In this document: positions 8,784 to 46,213 of the stretch, one piece after another
Layout: each line of letters starts with the position of its first letter
Numbering within the stretch: the first letter of the stretch is position 1
Origin: Candidatus Babelota bacterium
GTDB lineage: Bacteria; Babelota; Babeliae; Babelales; JACPOV01
Assembly: GCA_016191325.1 (NCBI GenBank)
Contig: JACPOV010000008.1
Location: 910,351-974,350 of the forward strand
Length of the DNA: 64,000 nucleotides
Direction of reading: 5' to 3'
Translations under genes and position numbers: made by a program
Notes under the pieces: model-generated
Databases searched by the model: none
Seen by the model: the letters and a program-made list of their open reading frames with translations, nothing else
Told to the model about the DNA's origin: nothing

Positions 8784-9350
8784 ATTTATGCTCCAAAAAA
8801 GCTAATTCTGGCCCGGCCCTTTCTTAACGAATCGTCTTCTCTTCCTCAATTTTTATGTGTTCATATTTTTTTATTTCATTCGTAGGATTACGACTTTCTT
8901 TATTACTATCGCTATTAACATGATTTTTCAGCACCTTTTTGATTAAAAAAGTGCCCTCGTTTTCATTACTCTTTTTTAAGGAATCTTCTTTCTTGATAAC
9001 TATATTTATCTATTTAGCCCTGCGCCGCTTTTTTTAGATCGGCCAGAGTTTCTCGATAGCCTGATTTGTCAGCTATCAACCAATTTCACATTTGTCATTT
9101 ATTTAAAAAAGTAGCCAGTTTGACATAGTTTTTTAATTCAATTATTATGAATAGAGCATGCGTATATTGGTGTTTTCCGTTAGGCCGAGCCTTTTAACTT
9201 AAGTTTCAAATGTTGGTTATATTCTTTTCTTTAGCATTATTATTTGAGCTTTGCGCTCTTCCGATGAATAACACCCAAGATTCTATCACGAACTTGCCCT
9301 TGCCAAGTGAACTTAATTAATATCAATTATTTATTTATATGGGGTTATTT

Positions 9351-39291: not shown

Positions 39292-39744
39292 ATGAAAATT
39301 TTAGCGCAAAATAAAAAAGCTTTTTTTGATTATGAAATTCTCGATCACATCGAAGCAGGAATTGTGCTCACCGGGGATGAAGTAAAATCGATGCGGGCCG
39401 GGCACATTTCGCTTGTTGGTGCCTATGCGACGATTTACCGAGGAGAGCTTTTTTTAATCAATTGCACCGTGGCACCGTATGCGCAGGCGTATCAAAAAAA
39501 AGATGAAACAAAAACTCGTTCACGAAAACTTCTCGTTCATCGGCGCGAACTTAATCGAATCGCCGGCGATATCTCTCGCAAAGGAGTTACGATCTTAGCA
39601 CTCAAAATTTACCTGAATGAAAAAAATCTCATTAAAGTAGATTTGGGAATTGGTAAACACAAAAAAGCTGGCGATAAACGAGAAGCAATTAAAGAAAAAG
39701 ATCTCAAGCGCGAATCGCAACGCGAGTTAAAAAATAAATATTAA
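39292..39744 (+). CDS. smpB: SsrA-binding protein SmpB
   Basis: NKKAFFDYEILDHIEAGIVLTGDEVKSMR...KLLVHRRELNRI...GKHKKAGDKRE is typical SmpB. Confidence 0.93.
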   Translation: MKILAQNKKAFFDYEILDHIEAGIVLTGDEVKSMRAGHISLVGAYATIYRGELFLINCTVAPYAQAYQKKDETKTRSRKLLVHRRELNRIAGDISRKGVTILALKIYLNEKNLIKVDLGIGKHKKAGDKREAIKEKDLKRESQRELKNKY

Positions 39745-39774
39745 AAAACCTAAGCATTTACATCTAGGATTATC

Positions 39775-40794
39775 ATGATGGTTCTCTACTCTTTGTTACT
39801 TCTTTTTGGTTCCTATGCCCATTGCATGGAACAAAACAAATCGTTCACAATTCAAGAAACCCGCCAAGTTATTCTGAAGGATCCCGTATCGTTCATACAA
39901 GAAATAAGAAATCATCAGAAAAAAATGATGGGCGAAATAAAAACAAAAAATCTTGATACCGTAAACAACTGGCCCGCAAGCATCGAAATTATAAAAAAAT
40001 ATCAAGCAATCATGCCCCTTGTTCAACTTGGCGAATGCCCAGGAATCTCAGGAAGAGATTGTCCGCTTGATCGAATGCTCTTTCCCGAGTTACGAGATGC
40101 ATACGAGAAAGAGGTTTCAAAAGAATTGGCGGCGCAATTGCAAACACAGAAAGAAGTGCACCTTGCAAGTTTTGGTTCGGGTGATCTTTCACAAGACCTC
40201 ATTGTGTACACAAAAGCACTTGCTAAAGTGACCGATAACCCAAAACTCACCATTCATAACATTGATCTAGTTTATAAGTTTAACACGCCTTATTCGGATC
40301 TGATTGGAAAAAAGCGTCTAATTGAACACGAAGACTTTACAGAAAATTTTGCGATCGAGTTCATTTCAAAATCGTTACAAACTAAGTCTAAGCAGCCTCT
40401 ATCAAAAGAAACAGCACGAAATATTATTCTATCCGGCTTGCATTACACGTCATTAAAGAATAACAGCATGCTTGATTTTCTTAAAAATGCATTTCCCAAA
40501 GCAGCGATCTCGTTATATGTCCACCAATCGGCAGATAGTTATTTGCAATATATGAAGCGTGAAAAGCTAAGCCCGCCCACTATTGTTACTGCTTGCGATA
40601 TCGATAACGTGGAAGACTTCAAGTCCGGCAGCACCATTGCTTATGCTGATATCTCTAAAAAAGCATTTGAAAATCCTAACGCGGCCACTTTTTTATTGGC
40701 CCGCGAAGATCCATCGTCGACACAGGCGCAATTGCTCGTTATGAAAAAAAAGAATGACCAAACTCCTATTGCGCTCATATCTCTTTTTTCATAA
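39775..40794 (+). CDS. Leader-bearing protein, tandem paralog P1 (possible Rossmann/methyltransferase-like core)
   Basis: MMVLYSLLLLFGSYAHC|MEQNKS. Conserved with P3: EC-x7-CPL-x-R, VHLASFGSGDLSQDLIVYTKAL...LTIHNIDL, FLKNAFPKAAISLYVH, TACDID. Function not established. Confidence 0.7.
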   Translation: MMVLYSLLLLFGSYAHCMEQNKSFTIQETRQVILKDPVSFIQEIRNHQKKMMGEIKTKNLDTVNNWPASIEIIKKYQAIMPLVQLGECPGISGRDCPLDRMLFPELRDAYEKEVSKELAAQLQTQKEVHLASFGSGDLSQDLIVYTKALAKVTDNPKLTIHNIDLVYKFNTPYSDLIGKKRLIEHEDFTENFAIEFISKSLQTKSKQPLSKETARNIILSGLHYTSLKNNSMLDFLKNAFPKAAISLYVHQSADSYLQYMKREKLSPPTIVTACDIDNVEDFKSGSTIAYADISKKAFENPNAATFLLAREDPSSTQAQLLVMKKKNDQTPIALISLFS

Positions 40795-40834
40795 TAAATA
40801 ACTATATTCTCAGAGTTGATCTGAAAGCAAACGC

Positions 40835-41878
40835 ATGAATTATTTATCGGCTATAATTTTATTTTTTTCAATTTTTAATGTTCCTCTTTCCTGCATGGAA
40901 AAAAAAACGCAATCAACAACAACAAAAAAATCTGCAGATTTTGAGAACTTAAAAAAAACAATTCTCTTAAAGCCAGTAGATCTATTGCAAGCTAATATGT
41001 TGTCTCAGGCTGCATTTGAAATTCAAGAACAAAAACTAGATGATGATGTTCCCAGAGAGGGGCTTGTAGCGCAAATAGAAAAAACAGTTCCATTTTTTTT
41101 TATTAATGAATGTGGTAGACACAGCAGTGAAGATTGTCTTTTAAGTCGTTTTAAAAATCCTAAACTCAGACAAAAATATGCTGAAATCGTTAGTGCTGCT
41201 CTTATTGAAAAGATTAACCGCACAGAAGAAACGGTTAAATATACTACAGTAAGCACACCGCTTTTTTCAGACTTGGAGATTTTAACGCGAACTCTTGATA
41301 AAAAAAGCAATGCCAAAATAGCGATTGATGTTGTTGATATCTTTCACGGCATTTTCGATTTATTTTGCACTGTTCAAAGCAAAGATCATTCTCTCGATAA
41401 TCTAATGGAAAAAACAATAGGACAAGAAGAGCTTGGCAAGATGCAAGAACTTGTTTCTACTCCTTGTTCAAGTGAAGTTAAAAAAGAACGGTTGGTTGAA
41501 AGCTTTTCTGTTGGAAAAACACGCAATAATCAATTACTCAATGGTTTGAGAAAGATGTTTCCAAAGGCCGATTTGACATTGTCCGTTTATAATTGTGTTG
41601 ATCATTATTTAAACCATGCAGCTGATGATGACTTCCTTGTTCCCGATATTGTCTGCGGGGACGATATTGAACACGAATTTGACCTGTCGGATAAAAATTT
41701 TGCATCGAAAGCCTTCCATGAACTCTCGATTGCTGCCCTTGTTGCCAATCCAACTGCTAAATCAATCCTCTTGAGCAAAAAATGCGAGGGCATTATTCAA
41801 ACGATAACTCGCAAGCCTACTACAACCTTCTATTATGAAGTTCAATACATAAAACCGTCAGTTGTAAAATTGAAATAA
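40835..41878 (+). CDS. Leader-bearing protein, tandem paralog P2 (divergent; Gly motif lost)
   Basis: MNYLSAIILFFSIFNVPLSC|MEKKTQ. Retains EC-x7-C-LL-SR, KMFPKADLTLSVY and CGDDIE, but has YTTVSTPLFSDLEIL in place of ASFGxG. Confidence 0.65.
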   Translation: MNYLSAIILFFSIFNVPLSCMEKKTQSTTTKKSADFENLKKTILLKPVDLLQANMLSQAAFEIQEQKLDDDVPREGLVAQIEKTVPFFFINECGRHSSEDCLLSRFKNPKLRQKYAEIVSAALIEKINRTEETVKYTTVSTPLFSDLEILTRTLDKKSNAKIAIDVVDIFHGIFDLFCTVQSKDHSLDNLMEKTIGQEELGKMQELVSTPCSSEVKKERLVESFSVGKTRNNQLLNGLRKMFPKADLTLSVYNCVDHYLNHAADDDFLVPDIVCGDDIEHEFDLSDKNFASKAFHELSIAALVANPTAKSILLSKKCEGIIQTITRKPTTTFYYEVQYIKPSVVKLK

Positions 41879-41994
41879 AAGTGTTCAGCCAAGCGCTCCT
41901 AAGTAATCACAATGCCAAGCAGTTCGATATTGATAGAAATCTGCAAATTTAAAAATTGAAAAAAAAGAATACCCATTAATATAGTTAGGATCTA

Positions 41995-43029
41995 ATGTTT
42001 AATCTTCTTTGCCTGTTCTTCATTGTTCCCTTTTACGTTATTGGAATGGATGAGCTGCCTTCAATTGAAACAACAAAAAACCAGATAATGAGTAACGAAT
42101 ATTTAAAAAATCATGAAATTATACGAAAAAAAGTTTTTCAAGAAATAGATGATCTTGGATTGACCAAAGAAGAAAAGTATACAGAGCGCATAGCCCTTCT
42201 GGAAAAGTACAAAAAAAAACATCCGCTCATAGCGCTATCGGAATGTGCATCCTCTCAAATGGGGGTTTGTCCATTGAGCAGAGCCATACATCCCAACTAT
42301 CGAGATACATATGAAAATACAGTTTCTCAAGAACTTGCACGACAATTAAAAAACCAAAAAACAATATCCATTGCAAGCTTTGGGTGCGGGCAACTTCTTT
42401 CTGATGCCATTATCTATACCAAAGCCCTTGAAACAACTAAGTCAGCAGAGCTCATCATTCATCAGATTGATCACCAATTAATTATTCCTCAATTATATTT
42501 GAATAAAACAGAAGAGAATCGACGCGTCAAAAGACAAACATTTTCATCAGAAGAAACCTTAAGTTCTATTCAAAAAACCTTAGAATCAACTAAAAACGAA
42601 TTTAGCGAAAACTCTGAAGAAAAAGCTTTGGCATCAGACAGCCTGGCTCTAAAAAATACAATACTGGACGAATTACATACTCAATCATTTCTGCATAATA
42701 GTCTATTAGATTACCTGCAAGAAGCATTCCCTCAAACTACTATTTCCATGTACGTTCACGGAACCGCACAAGATTATTTGCAAGATATAGAAAATAAAAA
42801 ATTCCCAAAACCGAATATGGCAATAGCGGCAGATATCGACGATGGATATGGAATGGAAAGAAATAGCGTGGCAGACTATTATTTAGTCAGATCAAAAGCT
42901 TTAGAAAATGATAATTCAGCAGCATATATTCTTGCACGATCTACAGAAAATCCAGATACCCAAGCGCAAATCAGATGTATAAAGATGGAAAATGGACAAC
43001 GAATTGAAGCATCTATGAAGAAATTATAG
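41995..43029 (+). CDS. Leader-bearing protein, tandem paralog P3
   Basis: MFNLLCLFFIVPFYVIG|MDELPS. ECASSQMGVCPLSR, ISIASFGCGQLLSDAIIYTKAL...LIIHQIDH, YLQEAFPQTTISMYVH, AADIDD. Confidence 0.7.
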   Translation: MFNLLCLFFIVPFYVIGMDELPSIETTKNQIMSNEYLKNHEIIRKKVFQEIDDLGLTKEEKYTERIALLEKYKKKHPLIALSECASSQMGVCPLSRAIHPNYRDTYENTVSQELARQLKNQKTISIASFGCGQLLSDAIIYTKALETTKSAELIIHQIDHQLIIPQLYLNKTEENRRVKRQTFSSEETLSSIQKTLESTKNEFSENSEEKALASDSLALKNTILDELHTQSFLHNSLLDYLQEAFPQTTISMYVHGTAQDYLQDIENKKFPKPNMAIAADIDDGYGMERNSVADYYLVRSKALENDNSAAYILARSTENPDTQAQIRCIKMENGQRIEASMKKL

Positions 43030-43053
43030 CAATCACCGATGAATTTTAGTTTT

Positions 43054-43082
43054 TTGACAAAATGAAGAAATTTTGTTACTAT
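43054..43082 (+). promoter_or_regulatory. Sigma70-like promoter candidate for ssrA
   Basis: TTGACA (43054-43059), 17 nt spacer, TACTAT (43077-43082), 28 nt upstream of the mature tmRNA 5' end. The hexamers match those upstream of tRNA-fMet. Confidence 0.55.
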
Positions 43083-43110
43083 TTGAATAGATGGATTCTT
43101 TGAAATTTTT

Positions 43111-43491
43111 GGGGGCGTACTGGCTTCGACGTTCTATAAACATCGTAGAAAGCATGCCGAGTTTGACTGAGACTCGTACAAAATTGGTCAAAAACAGAAA
43201 TGCAAACGCATCTCAACCGAATCCTAACGCTTACAACGCAGGTTTTGCCCTCGCTTAATCGTTAAGAGACACTTGTCAGTAAGGCGTGTCTATCAGTTGA
43301 ACTGACACGTATTAATCAGATAGAACTGATGCGGTAGATTTTTCAGTTGCGTAGCGTATCAGTATCACGAAACTGGCTCATGCGCATTCCTGTGTTTTCG
43401 AGGGGCGTATGAGTATATTCGAAAAATAAGCATGTAGCGTTTTACGTTTTTTATTTTGCGGACATGGGTTCGATTCCCATCGCCTCCACCA
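43111..43491 (+). ncRNA. ssrA: tmRNA (SsrA), one-piece
   Basis: The 5' GGGGGCGTACTGGCTTCGACG pairs with the 3' ...GGACATGGGTTCGATTCCCATCGCCTCCACCA (T-arm plus acceptor, G3:U70 alanine identity pair, CCA encoded). The tag ORF 43202-43258 (GCA AAC GCA ... GCC CTC GCT TAA) encodes ANASQPNPNAYNAGFALA. Confidence 0.9.
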
Positions 43492-43790
43492 GTCTTCGCT
43501 TATCCGGGCCTTCCGGCTCGACAAGCTACGCCTGGCTTCGCCATCTTTTCTAAGGACGGATACACAGTTAAATAGCGAAGACTGCCCGGCATAGCCTTTA
43601 GGCGACGCCTGGGCTGATCCAATCAAAAGAATCCTTATTTTCGCTTATCCGAGGCATTCCGGCTCGGTAAACTACGTATGGCAGGCCAGTTTTTTTTAAC
43701 GGATCAAAATAAATATCGCGAGCCAATTGAGGCGAAGTATGCCCTTCGTAGCTCGCCAACGAGCGAAGTAGGGCGAGTCTATTAAATCCA
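43492..43790. repeat. Repeat-rich region immediately 3' of ssrA
   Basis: Direct repeat TTCGCTTATCCGGGCCTTCCGGCTCGACAAGCTACGCCTGGC (from 43495) versus TTCGCTTATCCGAGGCATTCCGGCTCGGTAAACTACGTATGGC (from 43640). Inverted partial match ATAGCGAAGAC at 43572-43582. Hairpin-like GCCCTTCGTAGCTCGCCAACGAGCGAAGTAGGGCGAG (43741-43777) shares CCCTTCG and AGGGCGAG with the repeat family at 16.5, 26.7 and 28.5 kb. Confidence 0.6.
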
Positions 43791-43878: not shown

Positions 43879-44301
43879 ATGAAGTTATTTTTCACATTCA
43901 TTACATTTTCAATTACCTGCACTCTTTGCTCTATGAATATGAGCAGTAAACCTAAACCTATGCAAATTGATACGTATGTTTCGTTACATACCGGCGAAAC
44001 CGTTTTTACGGAGACGTTCAAAAACTTTTGGGGTAACATTCTGCGCGTTGCTCGAAGTGGAGATTATTCTCAAGATCTGCATGTTTCGCTTTTGGCTCTT
44101 TGCAAAGAAGGCACAGCGCTACCAGACCACCATAAAAAAATATTGGAAAAACACAGTCTTCCTACCAGCAGCGAGGAATTCGATGTGCATAAACGTTCTA
44201 TCATCATTGCAGCCCATGCAAATTGTAAGTTGATCATCAATCCATCAGATCCTAAAGATCTAACCGGCCAATTCATACTAAAACCCGAGAATATCCCCTA
44301 A
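43879..44301 (+). CDS. Small leader-bearing protein (leader ...S-M-N); intact paralog of 46393..46815
   Basis: MKLFFTFITFSITCTLCS|MNMSSKP. AGGGAGAG lies upstream. VSLHTGETVFTETFKNFW...SQDLHVSLLALC...INPSDPKDLTG aligns with the interrupted ORF at 46.4 kb. Confidence 0.65.
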   Translation: MKLFFTFITFSITCTLCSMNMSSKPKPMQIDTYVSLHTGETVFTETFKNFWGNILRVARSGDYSQDLHVSLLALCKEGTALPDHHKKILEKHSLPTSSEEFDVHKRSIIIAAHANCKLIINPSDPKDLTGQFILKPENIP

Positions 44302-44436: not shown

Positions 44437-45729
44437 ATGAACCGACTATTTTTAAAAATAGCATGGCCTATTGCTTCGATTGCCCACTTAGCAAGCGCAG
44501 CTCCTTCATTTGAATCACTAGCGCTTCTGGAGCGTCAAATTTCGGTATTGCCGGAAAAGACCTTCCGCTTCATGCCAACCTTTCTTAGCTTAGATCAGTT
44601 GCGAGCGACAATAGCCACTTATCGGGCACAACGAGTAATCGAACAACGCAACGCTCCATGGATAGACGCGCGTTCTTCAAATGGTCTTTTTGCGCAAAAG
44701 TTAATCGTACCGCAAGACAGCAAAATTCTTTTTTTTGGTGATATTCATGGATCAGTCCATTCGATCGTACGAATGTTTAATTCTTGCATAAAACAAGGAA
44801 TCGTGAACGATCAACTCGCGATTACACAACCAAATACTTACTTTGTTTTTCTGGGAGACTATGTCGATCGCGGTTTTTACAGCATAGAAACGCTCAATAC
44901 TCTTTTACAATTTGCAATACGAAATCCTGGCAAAGTGATTTTACTGCGCGGCAACCATGAAGATGAAATGATGAACCGTTCATTCGGGTTTGGCCAAGAA
45001 CTTACTACAAAGTTTCCGGAAATTGCCGCAGCCGACAATTCACTAATCTATAAATTATTTGATTTGATGCCCTCTGTGCTCTATTTAGGCGCAGGAATAA
45101 ATAATAATTTTGATATTATTCAATGTTGCCACGGGGGTATTGAAATTGGATTCAATCCTCAAAAATTACTAGAGCATTCATCACACAAAACTTTTCAAGC
45201 AATTGATCGAATCGAGAGAGCAAGCGCCATTCGCGCATTGCCGCAAGCGTTAAAAAAACCAATTCTCGATACGATTCCCGCGCAAGAAATATGCGGCTGT
45301 TCGCTCTCAGCTCCAACTTCGCCTACGCATCTTGGATTTTTATGGAACGATTTTATTGAAAAAGATACGCTGTATACATCATCTGCAATTGGCTATAAAG
45401 AAGATCGCGGTTGGGTGCTTGGTAAAATTCTAACCAAACATTTTCTAAGTATGCACAGCGCCGCAAATGCTCACATTCGCACAATTTTTCGCGCGCATCA
45501 GCACCATGGATCAATGCTTGAAATGATGAAAGAAAATCAGGGAATTGTTCCACTCTGGAACGGATTGGTTTATACCTTTGTTTCATCCCCTGTTAACGGA
45601 ATGAATATTCACTTCGACTCGTATGGGATTTTAAGCGTTGGTAAATCGTTTGACGAGTGGAAAATGAAGCACTGCATTATTACAAAAAATGGCATCGATT
45701 ACAAAGAGATGCCAAAACTCATCAACTAA
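44437..45729 (+). CDS. Secreted PPP-family (eukaryote-type) Ser/Thr protein phosphatase
   Basis: Leader MNRLFLKIAWPIASIAHLASA. PPP motifs in order: FFGDIHGS (GDxHG), LGDYVDRG (GDxVDRG), LRGNHED (GNHE), CCHGG (HGG), FRAHQH (RAHQ). Confidence 0.85.
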   Translation: MNRLFLKIAWPIASIAHLASAAPSFESLALLERQISVLPEKTFRFMPTFLSLDQLRATIATYRAQRVIEQRNAPWIDARSSNGLFAQKLIVPQDSKILFFGDIHGSVHSIVRMFNSCIKQGIVNDQLAITQPNTYFVFLGDYVDRGFYSIETLNTLLQFAIRNPGKVILLRGNHEDEMMNRSFGFGQELTTKFPEIAAADNSLIYKLFDLMPSVLYLGAGINNNFDIIQCCHGGIEIGFNPQKLLEHSSHKTFQAIDRIERASAIRALPQALKKPILDTIPAQEICGCSLSAPTSPTHLGFLWNDFIEKDTLYTSSAIGYKEDRGWVLGKILTKHFLSMHSAANAHIRTIFRAHQHHGSMLEMMKENQGIVPLWNGLVYTFVSSPVNGMNIHFDSYGILSVGKSFDEWKMKHCIITKNGIDYKEMPKLIN

Positions 45730-45760: not shown

Positions 45761-46213
45761 ATGAATTATAAACTATTGTTTATGACACCTCTTTTCTATC
45801 CGCTTATAAATTGCATGGATCAGCAAAAACTTACGGAGCGACAACAAGGTATTAATGCCTATCAGTCGGTGCAACCAGCTGTTGCAAAACTCATGAAGCA
45901 TCCAAAAAATGATCCATGGCCTTTGATAACTCTAAACCATATCATCAACGGCAACAGGAAACAGGATCTCGACGGTCAATATAAAGAAAACGGTAAAGAA
46001 TATGAACAGGGCATTGGGATAGATGGCTTAAAGAATATCAAAGTTCTTGAAGAATACGGATTTCCCAAAAAAGCTCCCGAATATACCCCTTTAGTCAAAG
46101 AGGCAATAAATTTTGCAATCAACACCTCTAAATTGGGCGCAGAACTCAAAGCAGAAAAAACAGTAACGGAATTAGATGTTATTCGTGCACAATTGGTATC
46201 AAAAAAGAAATAG
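45761..46213 (+). CDS. Small leader-bearing protein (leader ...C-M-D)
   Basis: MNYKLLFMTPLFYPLINC|MDQQKL. AGGGGGA lies upstream. 150 aa. Confidence 0.65.
   Translation: MNYKLLFMTPLFYPLINCMDQQKLTERQQGINAYQSVQPAVAKLMKHPKNDPWPLITLNHIINGNRKQDLDGQYKENGKEYEQGIGIDGLKNIKVLEEYGFPKKAPEYTPLVKEAINFAINTSKLGAELKAEKTVTELDVIRAQLVSKKK

Follow-up and report, generated by a model that had tools for sequence, protein, structure and literature searches.

Dependentiae are obligate intracellular bacteria of protists. To our knowledge, these parasites are widespread and almost nothing is known of how they manipulate their hosts. The closest described systems in the phylum are families of signal-peptide proteins, such as the ankyrin, WD40 and Ulp1-like families of Babela massiliensis and those of Chromulinavorax destructans, which were inferred to be exported via Sec and a type II system to the protist host (PMC4378268, PMC6561590, PMC4776705). 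In C. destructans, a cultured member, signal peptides were found on 44% of the coding sequences, a set enriched in proteins of unknown function (PMC6561590). A methyltransferase-fold family is not mentioned in any of these three papers. Here, we analysed a 64,000-nucleotide stretch from a Candidatus Babelota bacterium (assembly GCA_016191325.1, contig JACPOV010000008.1, positions 910,351 to 974,350; hereafter the window), in which ssrA, the gene for transfer-messenger RNA (tmRNA), and smpB, that for its protein partner, are parted by three open reading frames (ORFs) that we call P1, P2 and P3. The interpretation that we favour, with a confidence slightly better than even, is that these genes encode exported, probably host-directed methyltransferase-like proteins at a variable smpB–ssrA spacer.

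All genes of the interval lie on the forward strand. Its upstream edge is smpB (39292–39744; Pfam SmpB, E 1.9e-49), followed by P1 (39775–40794, 339 amino acids; NCBI entry HYX58_05135, a hypothetical protein of a Candidatus Dependentiae bacterium), P2 (40835–41878, 347 amino acids) and P3 (41995–43029, 344 amino acids), and its downstream edge is a one-piece ssrA (43111–43491), detected by ARAGORN and matched over its full length by Rfam RF00023 (140.4 bits), which encodes the tag ANASQPNPNAYNAGFALA. The intergenic gaps measure, in order, 30, 40, 116 and 81 nucleotides. This layout had been reported in a preliminary description of the same DNA, and we confirmed all of its coordinates. The three ORFs had also been called paralogs there, in agreement with their similarity to each other (36% identity between P1 and P3, 26% between P1 and P2) and to a common family profile (each at E 1e-70 to 1e-85).

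Judged by their sequences, P1–P3 belong to a large protein family of Dependentiae (TM6/Babeliales) that so far has no name. Pfam and NCBIfam scans of the three proteins matched no model, and a word-indexed homolog search returned, besides the query itself, no more than one or two nearly identical relatives and a single distant member. An exhaustive profile search, by comparison, retrieved 379 cluster representatives at E<=1e-3, of which 257 passed E<=1e-10 and 101 E<=1e-30. Those with a taxonomic name all belonged to Candidatus Babeliales or Babeliaceae and were all labelled "hypothetical protein", and a literature search found no description of the family in the papers retrieved. Many members are longer than P1–P3 (400–535 amino acids) and carry an extra N-terminal region. 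Five of them (P0005, P0007, P0010, P0022 and P0024) have an N-terminal extension of about 100 residues behind the leader described below; by eye, some of these extensions, for example that of P0005, contain two moderately hydrophobic stretches with a short loop in between, an arrangement reminiscent of the bilobed hydrophobic domains of chlamydial inclusion-membrane proteins. A hydrophobicity scan did not flag a second segment in any of the five.

The AlphaFold2 model of P1, computed with the family alignment as input, was of high confidence (predicted local distance difference test score, pLDDT, 91.4; predicted template modelling score, pTM, 0.89). It comprises strands at residues 127–133, 157–163, 244–250, 270–274, 304–310, 318–324 and 333–335 alternating with helices, together with a helical N-terminal region (26–79) and a helical insert (191–239). 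The P2 model (pLDDT 86.3, pTM 0.86) agrees with it in the order of elements: along the chain, each model has seven strands interspersed with helices, and the last three strands are consecutive. When the P1 model was compared with the Protein Data Bank (PDB) using Foldseek, the top 50 matches were almost only class I S-adenosylmethionine (SAM)-dependent methyltransferases, led by PIMT (E 5e-4) and HNMT (E 1.3e-3) and followed by NNMT, COMT, METTL21A and FAM86A. HNMT was likewise the top match of the P2 model (E 3.4e-3), and both models reached Foldseek probabilities of 0.9–1.0 to many class I methyltransferases. At the sequence level, a search of the family profile against PDB sequences gave HNMT as its single match (E 0.24), aligned from motif I to post-I and spanning the Gly loop, the next helix and the acidic residue of strand 2, and a single-sequence search with P3 against the PDB gave no matches. 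Based on these models, we propose with good confidence that the family has a methyltransferase-like, class I Rossmann fold. The resemblance to Rossmann methyltransferases that the preliminary description had noted by eye therefore holds at the level of the fold, through the AlphaFold model, the top Foldseek matches and the weak HNMT profile matches on motif I and post-I.

We also compared the P1 model with the viral structures of BFVD, where the best matches from any library, beating every PDB methyltransferase, were giant-virus ORFans: Tupanvirus soda lake A0A6N1NI86 (E 2e-7), Fadolivirus A0A7D3QVC1 (E 2.5e-7, TM score 0.64) and Tupanvirus deep ocean A0A6N1NPH3 (E 1e-5). Since no sequence relatives of the family turned up in a pattern scan of IMG/VR, this link is one of fold alone, and it may reflect either shared ancestry among amoeba parasites or mere fold similarity.

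All three proteins begin with a leader of the same form, namely a hydrophobic stretch and a small residue followed by Met-Glu or Met-Asp, with a hydrophobic fraction of 0.84–0.94. The P1 leader is MMVLYSLLLLFGSYAHC, followed by MEQ; the junctions read SYAHC/MEQ in P1, PLSC/MEK in P2 and VIG/MDE in P3. AGGA-like ribosome-binding motifs lie 6–10 nucleotides upstream of the leader ATGs, the internal Met is preceded only by pyrimidine-rich hydrophobic codons with no AGGA-like site, and the P1 ortholog of a close relative (locus L001) keeps the leader behind a GTG start. Because of these upstream AGGA sites and the conserved leader of the ortholog, we interpret the leader as an export signal that is translated. 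Gene callers had placed the starts of P0002 and P0003 at the internal Met; we rejected this residue as the true start, given that AGGA sites precede the leader ATGs only and that the hydrophobic extension is kept in orthologs and in unrelated families. A lipoprotein signal, considered since a Cys often precedes the Met, was rejected as well, as the residues ahead of the Cys do not fit a lipobox. The features of a Sec signal are there: a hydrophobic core, small residues at −3/−1 and an acidic, non-basic early mature region.

The preliminary description had noted this leader in all three proteins. It is indeed present and, as far as the start sites indicate, translated in all of them, yet it is not specific to them: 12 of the 74 window ORFs of at least 80 amino acids carry it, and so do unrelated proteins of other Dependentiae, including genes in the smpB–ssrA intervals of loci L008 and L010. 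We therefore regard it, on this sequence evidence, as a genome-wide export signal and not as a mark of the P1–P3 family. Other leader-bearing ORFs of the window are, for example, those at 9339, 10196, 32470, 32785, 34647, 45761, 46848, 51173 and 53031. Across many unrelated Babeliales proteins the leader has an almost fixed Met-Glu/Asp, with the Met at +1, and often no basic residue before the core, and a literature search found no description of such an x-M-E/D leader in the papers retrieved. Some Babela signal peptides have been called "somewhat atypical", and Babela reportedly has neither Met-tRNA formyltransferase nor deformylase (PMC4378268). An unblocked amino group at the N-terminus might therefore take the place of the usual Lys or Arg in these leaders.

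Alternatively, the hydrophobic N-terminus could be an uncleaved membrane anchor. The methyltransferase-like domain would then remain with the bacterium, either exposed to the cytoplasm or held at the envelope, and its substrate would be bacterial, for example a lipid or a membrane protein. SAM is present in the cytoplasm and not in the periplasm, which would suit such a location. The lack of basic residues ahead of the hydrophobic core also speaks for an anchor, whereas the small residue followed by Met-Glu/Asp fits the −3/−1 rule of signal peptidase. Similarly, P2 has a Lys-rich stretch right after its leader (MEKKTQSTTTKKS) that could keep the C-terminal domain cytoplasmic under the positive-inside rule, but the acidic early mature region favours export. 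In keeping with export, 63 of 91 family members have at least one hydrophobic N-terminal segment; the 14 of the 91 that have further segments in a longer N-terminal region would suit an anchor. Conversely, the same leader occurs on unrelated proteins, among them WD40 propellers that are treated as secreted in the Dependentiae literature (PMC4378268), and the Cys pair, set in a loop of variable length (3–7 residues between the two cysteines), resembles a disulfide bond in an exported protein. An anchor is thus the alternative that survives best, and we nevertheless consider it unlikely.

To return to exported methyltransferase-like proteins, we examined which residues the family conserves, using a 91-sequence alignment and P1 numbering throughout. 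The Gly loop, F133-G-S-G136 in P1 and FGCG in P3, directly follows strand 1 (127–133); position 134 is Gly or Ala in 87/91 members and position 137 is Gly in 54/91. D164, directly after strand 2 (157–163), is Asp in 84/91 and Glu in 5/91 and is present in P1, P2 and P3. D275 follows strand 4 (270–274) within the consensus A-A-D-I-Q/D-D, beyond the hhalign match to HNMT, which ends after strand 2. Less strict positions are H161 (73/91) and H250 (76/91). In the P1 model, strands 1–4 each carry a conserved element at their C-terminal end, namely the Gly loop, D164, H250 and D275, respectively. These strand-end positions hold SAM in class I methyltransferases, where the acidic residue ending strand 2 binds the ribose hydroxyls and the residue after strand 4 (motif IV, a position that D275 would fit) faces the methyl-transfer site. 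SAM binding by P1 and P3 is therefore plausible, as far as the model can tell.

The strictest conservation was observed elsewhere. E87, C96, R100 and R107, invariant in 91/91 members, sit in the Cys-pair loop (E87, C88, C96, R100, R107 and E111 in P1) and the helix before strand 1, and C88, P81, E111, F133 (86/91), G136 (86/91), F240, P241, Y256 and D275 (89/91) are nearly invariant. The sequence of the variable Cys loop is consistent with a disulfide of an exported protein. P2 retains the Cys pair, the two Arg and the Glu, the strand-2 Asp and the strand-4 Asp, but it lacks motif I, the Gly-rich loop after strand 1, which is replaced by KYTTVSTPLFSD (VSTP at the loop itself). All of the motifs quoted in the preliminary description are present in P1 and P3. 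The Cys pair, listed there for these two proteins, is in P2 too, as EC-x7-C-x-L-x-R (ECGRHSSEDCLLSR), and two spacings needed correction: the Gly loop is followed by G-x-L-x-x-D, one residue more than had been given, and L-x-IH-x-ID does follow YTKAL but starts about 8–9 residues on instead of about 20.

Could the fold serve in an exported protein that is not an enzyme, as a binding module capturing host SAM or nucleosides, or as a scaffold? Dependentiae lean heavily on host metabolites (PMC6561590, PMC4776705), which would give such a module a use. The P2 subfamily persists under purifying selection (ratio of nonsynonymous to synonymous substitution rates, dN/dS, 0.30) without the Gly loop, and the most invariant residues lie outside the SAM motifs; yet most members keep the full strand-end set including D275, the position facing the methyl-transfer site, and no transporter gene is consistently linked to family loci. 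A non-enzymatic role is thus somewhat less probable still than an anchor. The domain might also be another Rossmann-like nucleotide-binding domain that works independently of SAM, for example an E1/ThiF-like adenylating enzyme. Chains of UBA1, UBA6, UBA7 and NEDD8-E1 occurred among the Foldseek matches (E 4e-3 to 3e-2), as did ThiF and ubiquitin-activating enzymes among those of the viral library, but methyltransferases dominate both match lists and the top ranks for P1 and P2, HNMT on motif I and post-I provides the only sequence-level matches, and the G-x-G-G loop with a strand-end Asp about 28 residues on is a methyltransferase pattern. We consider an E1/ThiF-like enzyme improbable.

How the three copies arose was addressed with a neighbour-joining tree of the 91 sequences, in which P3, with every motif intact, is sister to the pair formed by P1 and its ortholog in L001. 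P2 joins P0014, the second gene of L001, and P0006 from a third organism in a separate subfamily. The close relative L001, whose P1 is 82–84% and whose SmpB is 97% identical to those of the window, has smpB, P1, P2 and tmRNA but no P3, and on the P0006 contig a single P2-type gene stands behind smpB, separated by 930 bp from the phosphatase gene that also lies downstream of ssrA in the window. The interval thus holds one (P0006 contig), two (L001) or three (window) copies, and the P2 type, which follows smpB in three lineages, is its most widely shared occupant. Neither P2 nor P0006 has the Gly loop any longer, and P0014 retains part of it (FGNRG). P2 had been proposed as a possible degenerate or regulatory copy: it did keep the scaffold (pLDDT 86, same element order) and lose the Gly loop, but it is a distinct subfamily found in three lineages and not a recently decayed copy.

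Synonymous sites are saturated between the paralogs (proportion of synonymous differences, pS, ~0.73), and the duplications are therefore old. Between the window and L001, dN/dS was 0.19 for P1 and 0.30 for P2 (47% amino acid identity), compared with 0.03–0.06 for smpB (0.033), tsaD, DUF2062 and the phosphatase gene. These sequence comparisons indicate that P1 and P2 are fast-evolving or relaxed while still under purifying selection; positive selection was not demonstrated. Of the "evolving effector family" previously suggested, the raised dN/dS remains, even though the values are well below 1 and the duplications old.

We next consider the spacer itself. Scanning reference genomes with SmpB yielded about 20 Dependentiae loci (54–71% identity). 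In six of these (L005, L009, L015, L016, L017 and L025) a same-strand tmRNA lies 65–136 bp past smpB, while in seven others (L008, L010, L011, L012, L014, L021 and L024) the tmRNA, supported by Rfam in every case, lies 1.2–7.2 kb past it. The cargo of the long spacers is lineage-specific and consists mostly of same-strand genes: one leader-bearing WD40 propeller in L008 (10532–11647), six tandem WD40-type paralogs, five with an A/MD leader, in L010 (9086–16151), four small proteins with hydrophobic N-termini in L011, two DUF308 membrane proteins in L012, and a DDE transposase plus leader proteins in L014 (10910–11701). The family profile detected no P1–P3 family member among these cargo genes. 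The spacer is hence a variable site that is filled differently by lineage and tends to collect exported-protein genes. The placement had been described as unusual, which is true insofar as the two genes normally adjoin each other; across Dependentiae, however, what occupies the spacer varies and consists of unrelated, mostly leader-bearing genes. P1–P3 genes, whose presence in the interval of distant lineages would have counted against the preliminary description, were not found there.

Family members elsewhere (11 metagenome loci, L084–L088 and the P0110 contig) lie away from tmRNA genes and called smpB, with tandem pairs in L086/L087 and L097. As the spacer is variably filled and most family members lie elsewhere, the placement of P1–P3 is no trait of the family and gives no hint of a tie to trans-translation. 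In L084, a Babeliales metagenome-assembled genome, the single family copy is near two TLC nucleotide transporter genes and two genes upstream of a histone-deacetylase-like gene (Pfam Hist_deacetyl; loci L084:10405-11652 and L084:2681-5651). Insertion of P1–P3 by a mobile element was rejected, as the window has no flanking repeats, integrase or transposase at this site.

Upstream of P3, a promoter-like site (41956–41985, TTGAAA-18-TATAGT) was noted as a consensus match only. A second promoter-like site precedes ssrA (43054–43082; TTGACA, 17 nucleotides, TACTAT, with TG; 10/12 matches in a consensus scan). It is conserved in L001, where it adjoins the stop codon of P2 as it adjoins that of P3 in the window, and the junction with it is clean in both. 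A functional tie to trans-translation, such as methylation of tmRNA, SmpB or the ribosome, could be read from the tight same-strand spacing after smpB (gaps of 30 and 40 nucleotides), the lack of a terminator-like site between smpB, P1 and P2 and the P2-type copy behind smpB in three lineages, but it is very improbable and the weakest of the alternatives given that all three proteins bear an export leader, that smpB and ssrA are adjacent in six related genomes and separated by unrelated cargo in seven, that the other family loci lie away from both genes, and that ssrA has its own conserved promoter.

Under the favoured interpretation of exported methyltransferase-like proteins, P1–P3 would leave the cytoplasm via Sec, with release probably by the type II secretion system, and P1 and P3 would bind SAM and methylate a substrate. 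P2, having lost the Gly loop, would be a non-catalytic or altered copy, and the position between smpB and ssrA would have no functional meaning for trans-translation, with ssrA keeping its own conserved promoter. The periplasm contains no SAM, whereas the cytoplasm does. A type II secretion system belongs to the core of TM6 (PMC4776705), and the signal-peptide proteins of Babela have been proposed to enter the cytoplasm of the amoeba (PMC4378268). Taken together, these three points would make the host cell, where SAM is available, the most likely site of action of P1 and P3.

Several points weigh against this interpretation. The likeness to solved methyltransferases is remote (TM scores 0.25–0.47, best Foldseek E 5e-4), and hhalign of the family against HNMT, whose sequence was confirmed against 1jqd, gave a probability of only 43% (E 2.4e-4) over the 74 columns from motif I to post-I. 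When the 91 members were scanned singly against Pfam, no consistent family emerged and no methyltransferase model matched, apart from Methyltransf_32 in one member at E 0.04, and some ubiquitin-activating Rossmann domains of the E1/ThiF type appeared among the Foldseek matches. The invariant E87, C96, R100 and R107 are outside the canonical SAM motifs, and the chemistry could therefore differ. The leaders are atypical in lacking the usual basic N-region, and both export and delivery to the host cell are inferred from the leader and from the literature on the phylum. Finally, the enrichment of the x-M-E/D leader in the intervals (11/24 interval genes versus 16/180 flank genes; odds ratio 8.7, p 2e-5) comes from a count that treats tandem paralogs as independent.

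A more far-reaching version of the same interpretation, which we put forward only tentatively, would see in P1–P3 unrecognised, Dependentiae-restricted exported methyltransferases acting on protist targets, with a catalytically dead P2-type partner or regulator, and in the spacer a recurrent nursery of exported-protein genes, where arrays would have been inserted and expanded, perhaps using read-through from smpB. If this were true, the fold-level link to the ORFans of Tupanvirus and Fadolivirus would speak for exchange between parasites that share their hosts. The findings overturn nothing in the current understanding. They do give a fold and a cofactor hypothesis to a family of hundreds of members without annotation, turn three "hypothetical proteins" into concrete targets for work on SAM binding, methyl-transfer substrates and secretion, and suggest that the smpB–ssrA spacer could serve as a landmark for candidate host-interaction genes in new Dependentiae genomes.

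Downstream of ssrA, we observed further features, the genes among them on the same strand. An imperfect, GC-rich direct repeat of about 60 nucleotides (43495–43553 and 43640–43699, copies 145 bp apart) begins 4 bases past the 3′ CCA of ssrA; it is not kept in L001 and matched no Rfam family. Further on is the gene for a PPP-type Ser/Thr phosphatase-like protein of 430 amino acids (44437–45729; Pfam Metallophos, E 1.4e-16) with the GDIHG / GDYVDRG / GNHE signature, which is eukaryote-like, and a signal-like N-terminus. Its gene is kept in the window, in L001 and on the P0006 contig (dN/dS 0.06), and it may be another exported host-directed enzyme. The phosphatase gene is flanked by two small leader ORFs without a family match, one of 140 amino acids (43879–44301, leader ending CS/MN), whose L001 ortholog shares 68% amino acid identity (dN/dS 0.15), and one of 150 amino acids (45761–46213, leader ending NC/MD).

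How does this locus compare with known systems? tmRNA genes are frequent targets of integrases, at their 3′ end. As in ssrA-integrated islands and prophages, variable lineage-specific DNA lies beside ssrA, and the L014 gap includes a DDE transposase; in contrast to such islands, the cargo of the window is 5′ of ssrA, between smpB and the ssrA promoter, and comes without an integrase ORF, a duplicated ssrA 3′ end or flanking repeats. Secreted methyltransferase effectors include the SET-domain proteins RomA/LegAS4 of Legionella and NUE of Chlamydia, the class I enzyme Rv1988 of Mycobacterium, and NleE/OspZ. The likeness to these lies in the concept only, that of an exported SAM-dependent enzyme methylating host targets with host SAM; they use type III, IV, VII or other secretion routes and belong to other folds or subfamilies, and we found no sequence relation or specific structural relation to P1–P3, although no test aimed at them was made.

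Within the phylum, the signal-peptide families of B. massiliensis and C. destructans introduced above are likewise lineage-specific, often tandem and equipped with somewhat atypical signal peptides, and the WD40 arrays in the spacers of L008 and L010 carry the same leader as P1–P3. The expanded Babela and Chromulinavorax families consist of repeat or protease domains, unlike the methyltransferase fold proposed here. With HNMT, PIMT, NNMT and COMT, the family shares the alternation of strands and helices, and with HNMT in particular the Gly loop after strand 1, where S-F-G-S-G-G-x-F-Q-D-L-V-I-L aligns with S-I-G-G-G-A-G-E-I-D-L-Q-I-L, and the strand-2 acidic residue, where D164 aligns with the Glu of VVEPS. 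It differs from class I methyltransferases in its remoteness (TM 0.25–0.47, 7–15% identity), in about 50 helical residues inserted between strands 2 and 3, and in adding an export leader, an N-terminal helical region and the Cys-pair loop with R100, R107 and E111. The methyltransferase fold and the concept of exported methyltransferases were thus already known; what is new here, besides the smpB–ssrA spacer being used recurrently, is a big unannotated family, so far found only in Dependentiae, with a module of its own, E-C...C-x-L-x-R...R...E.

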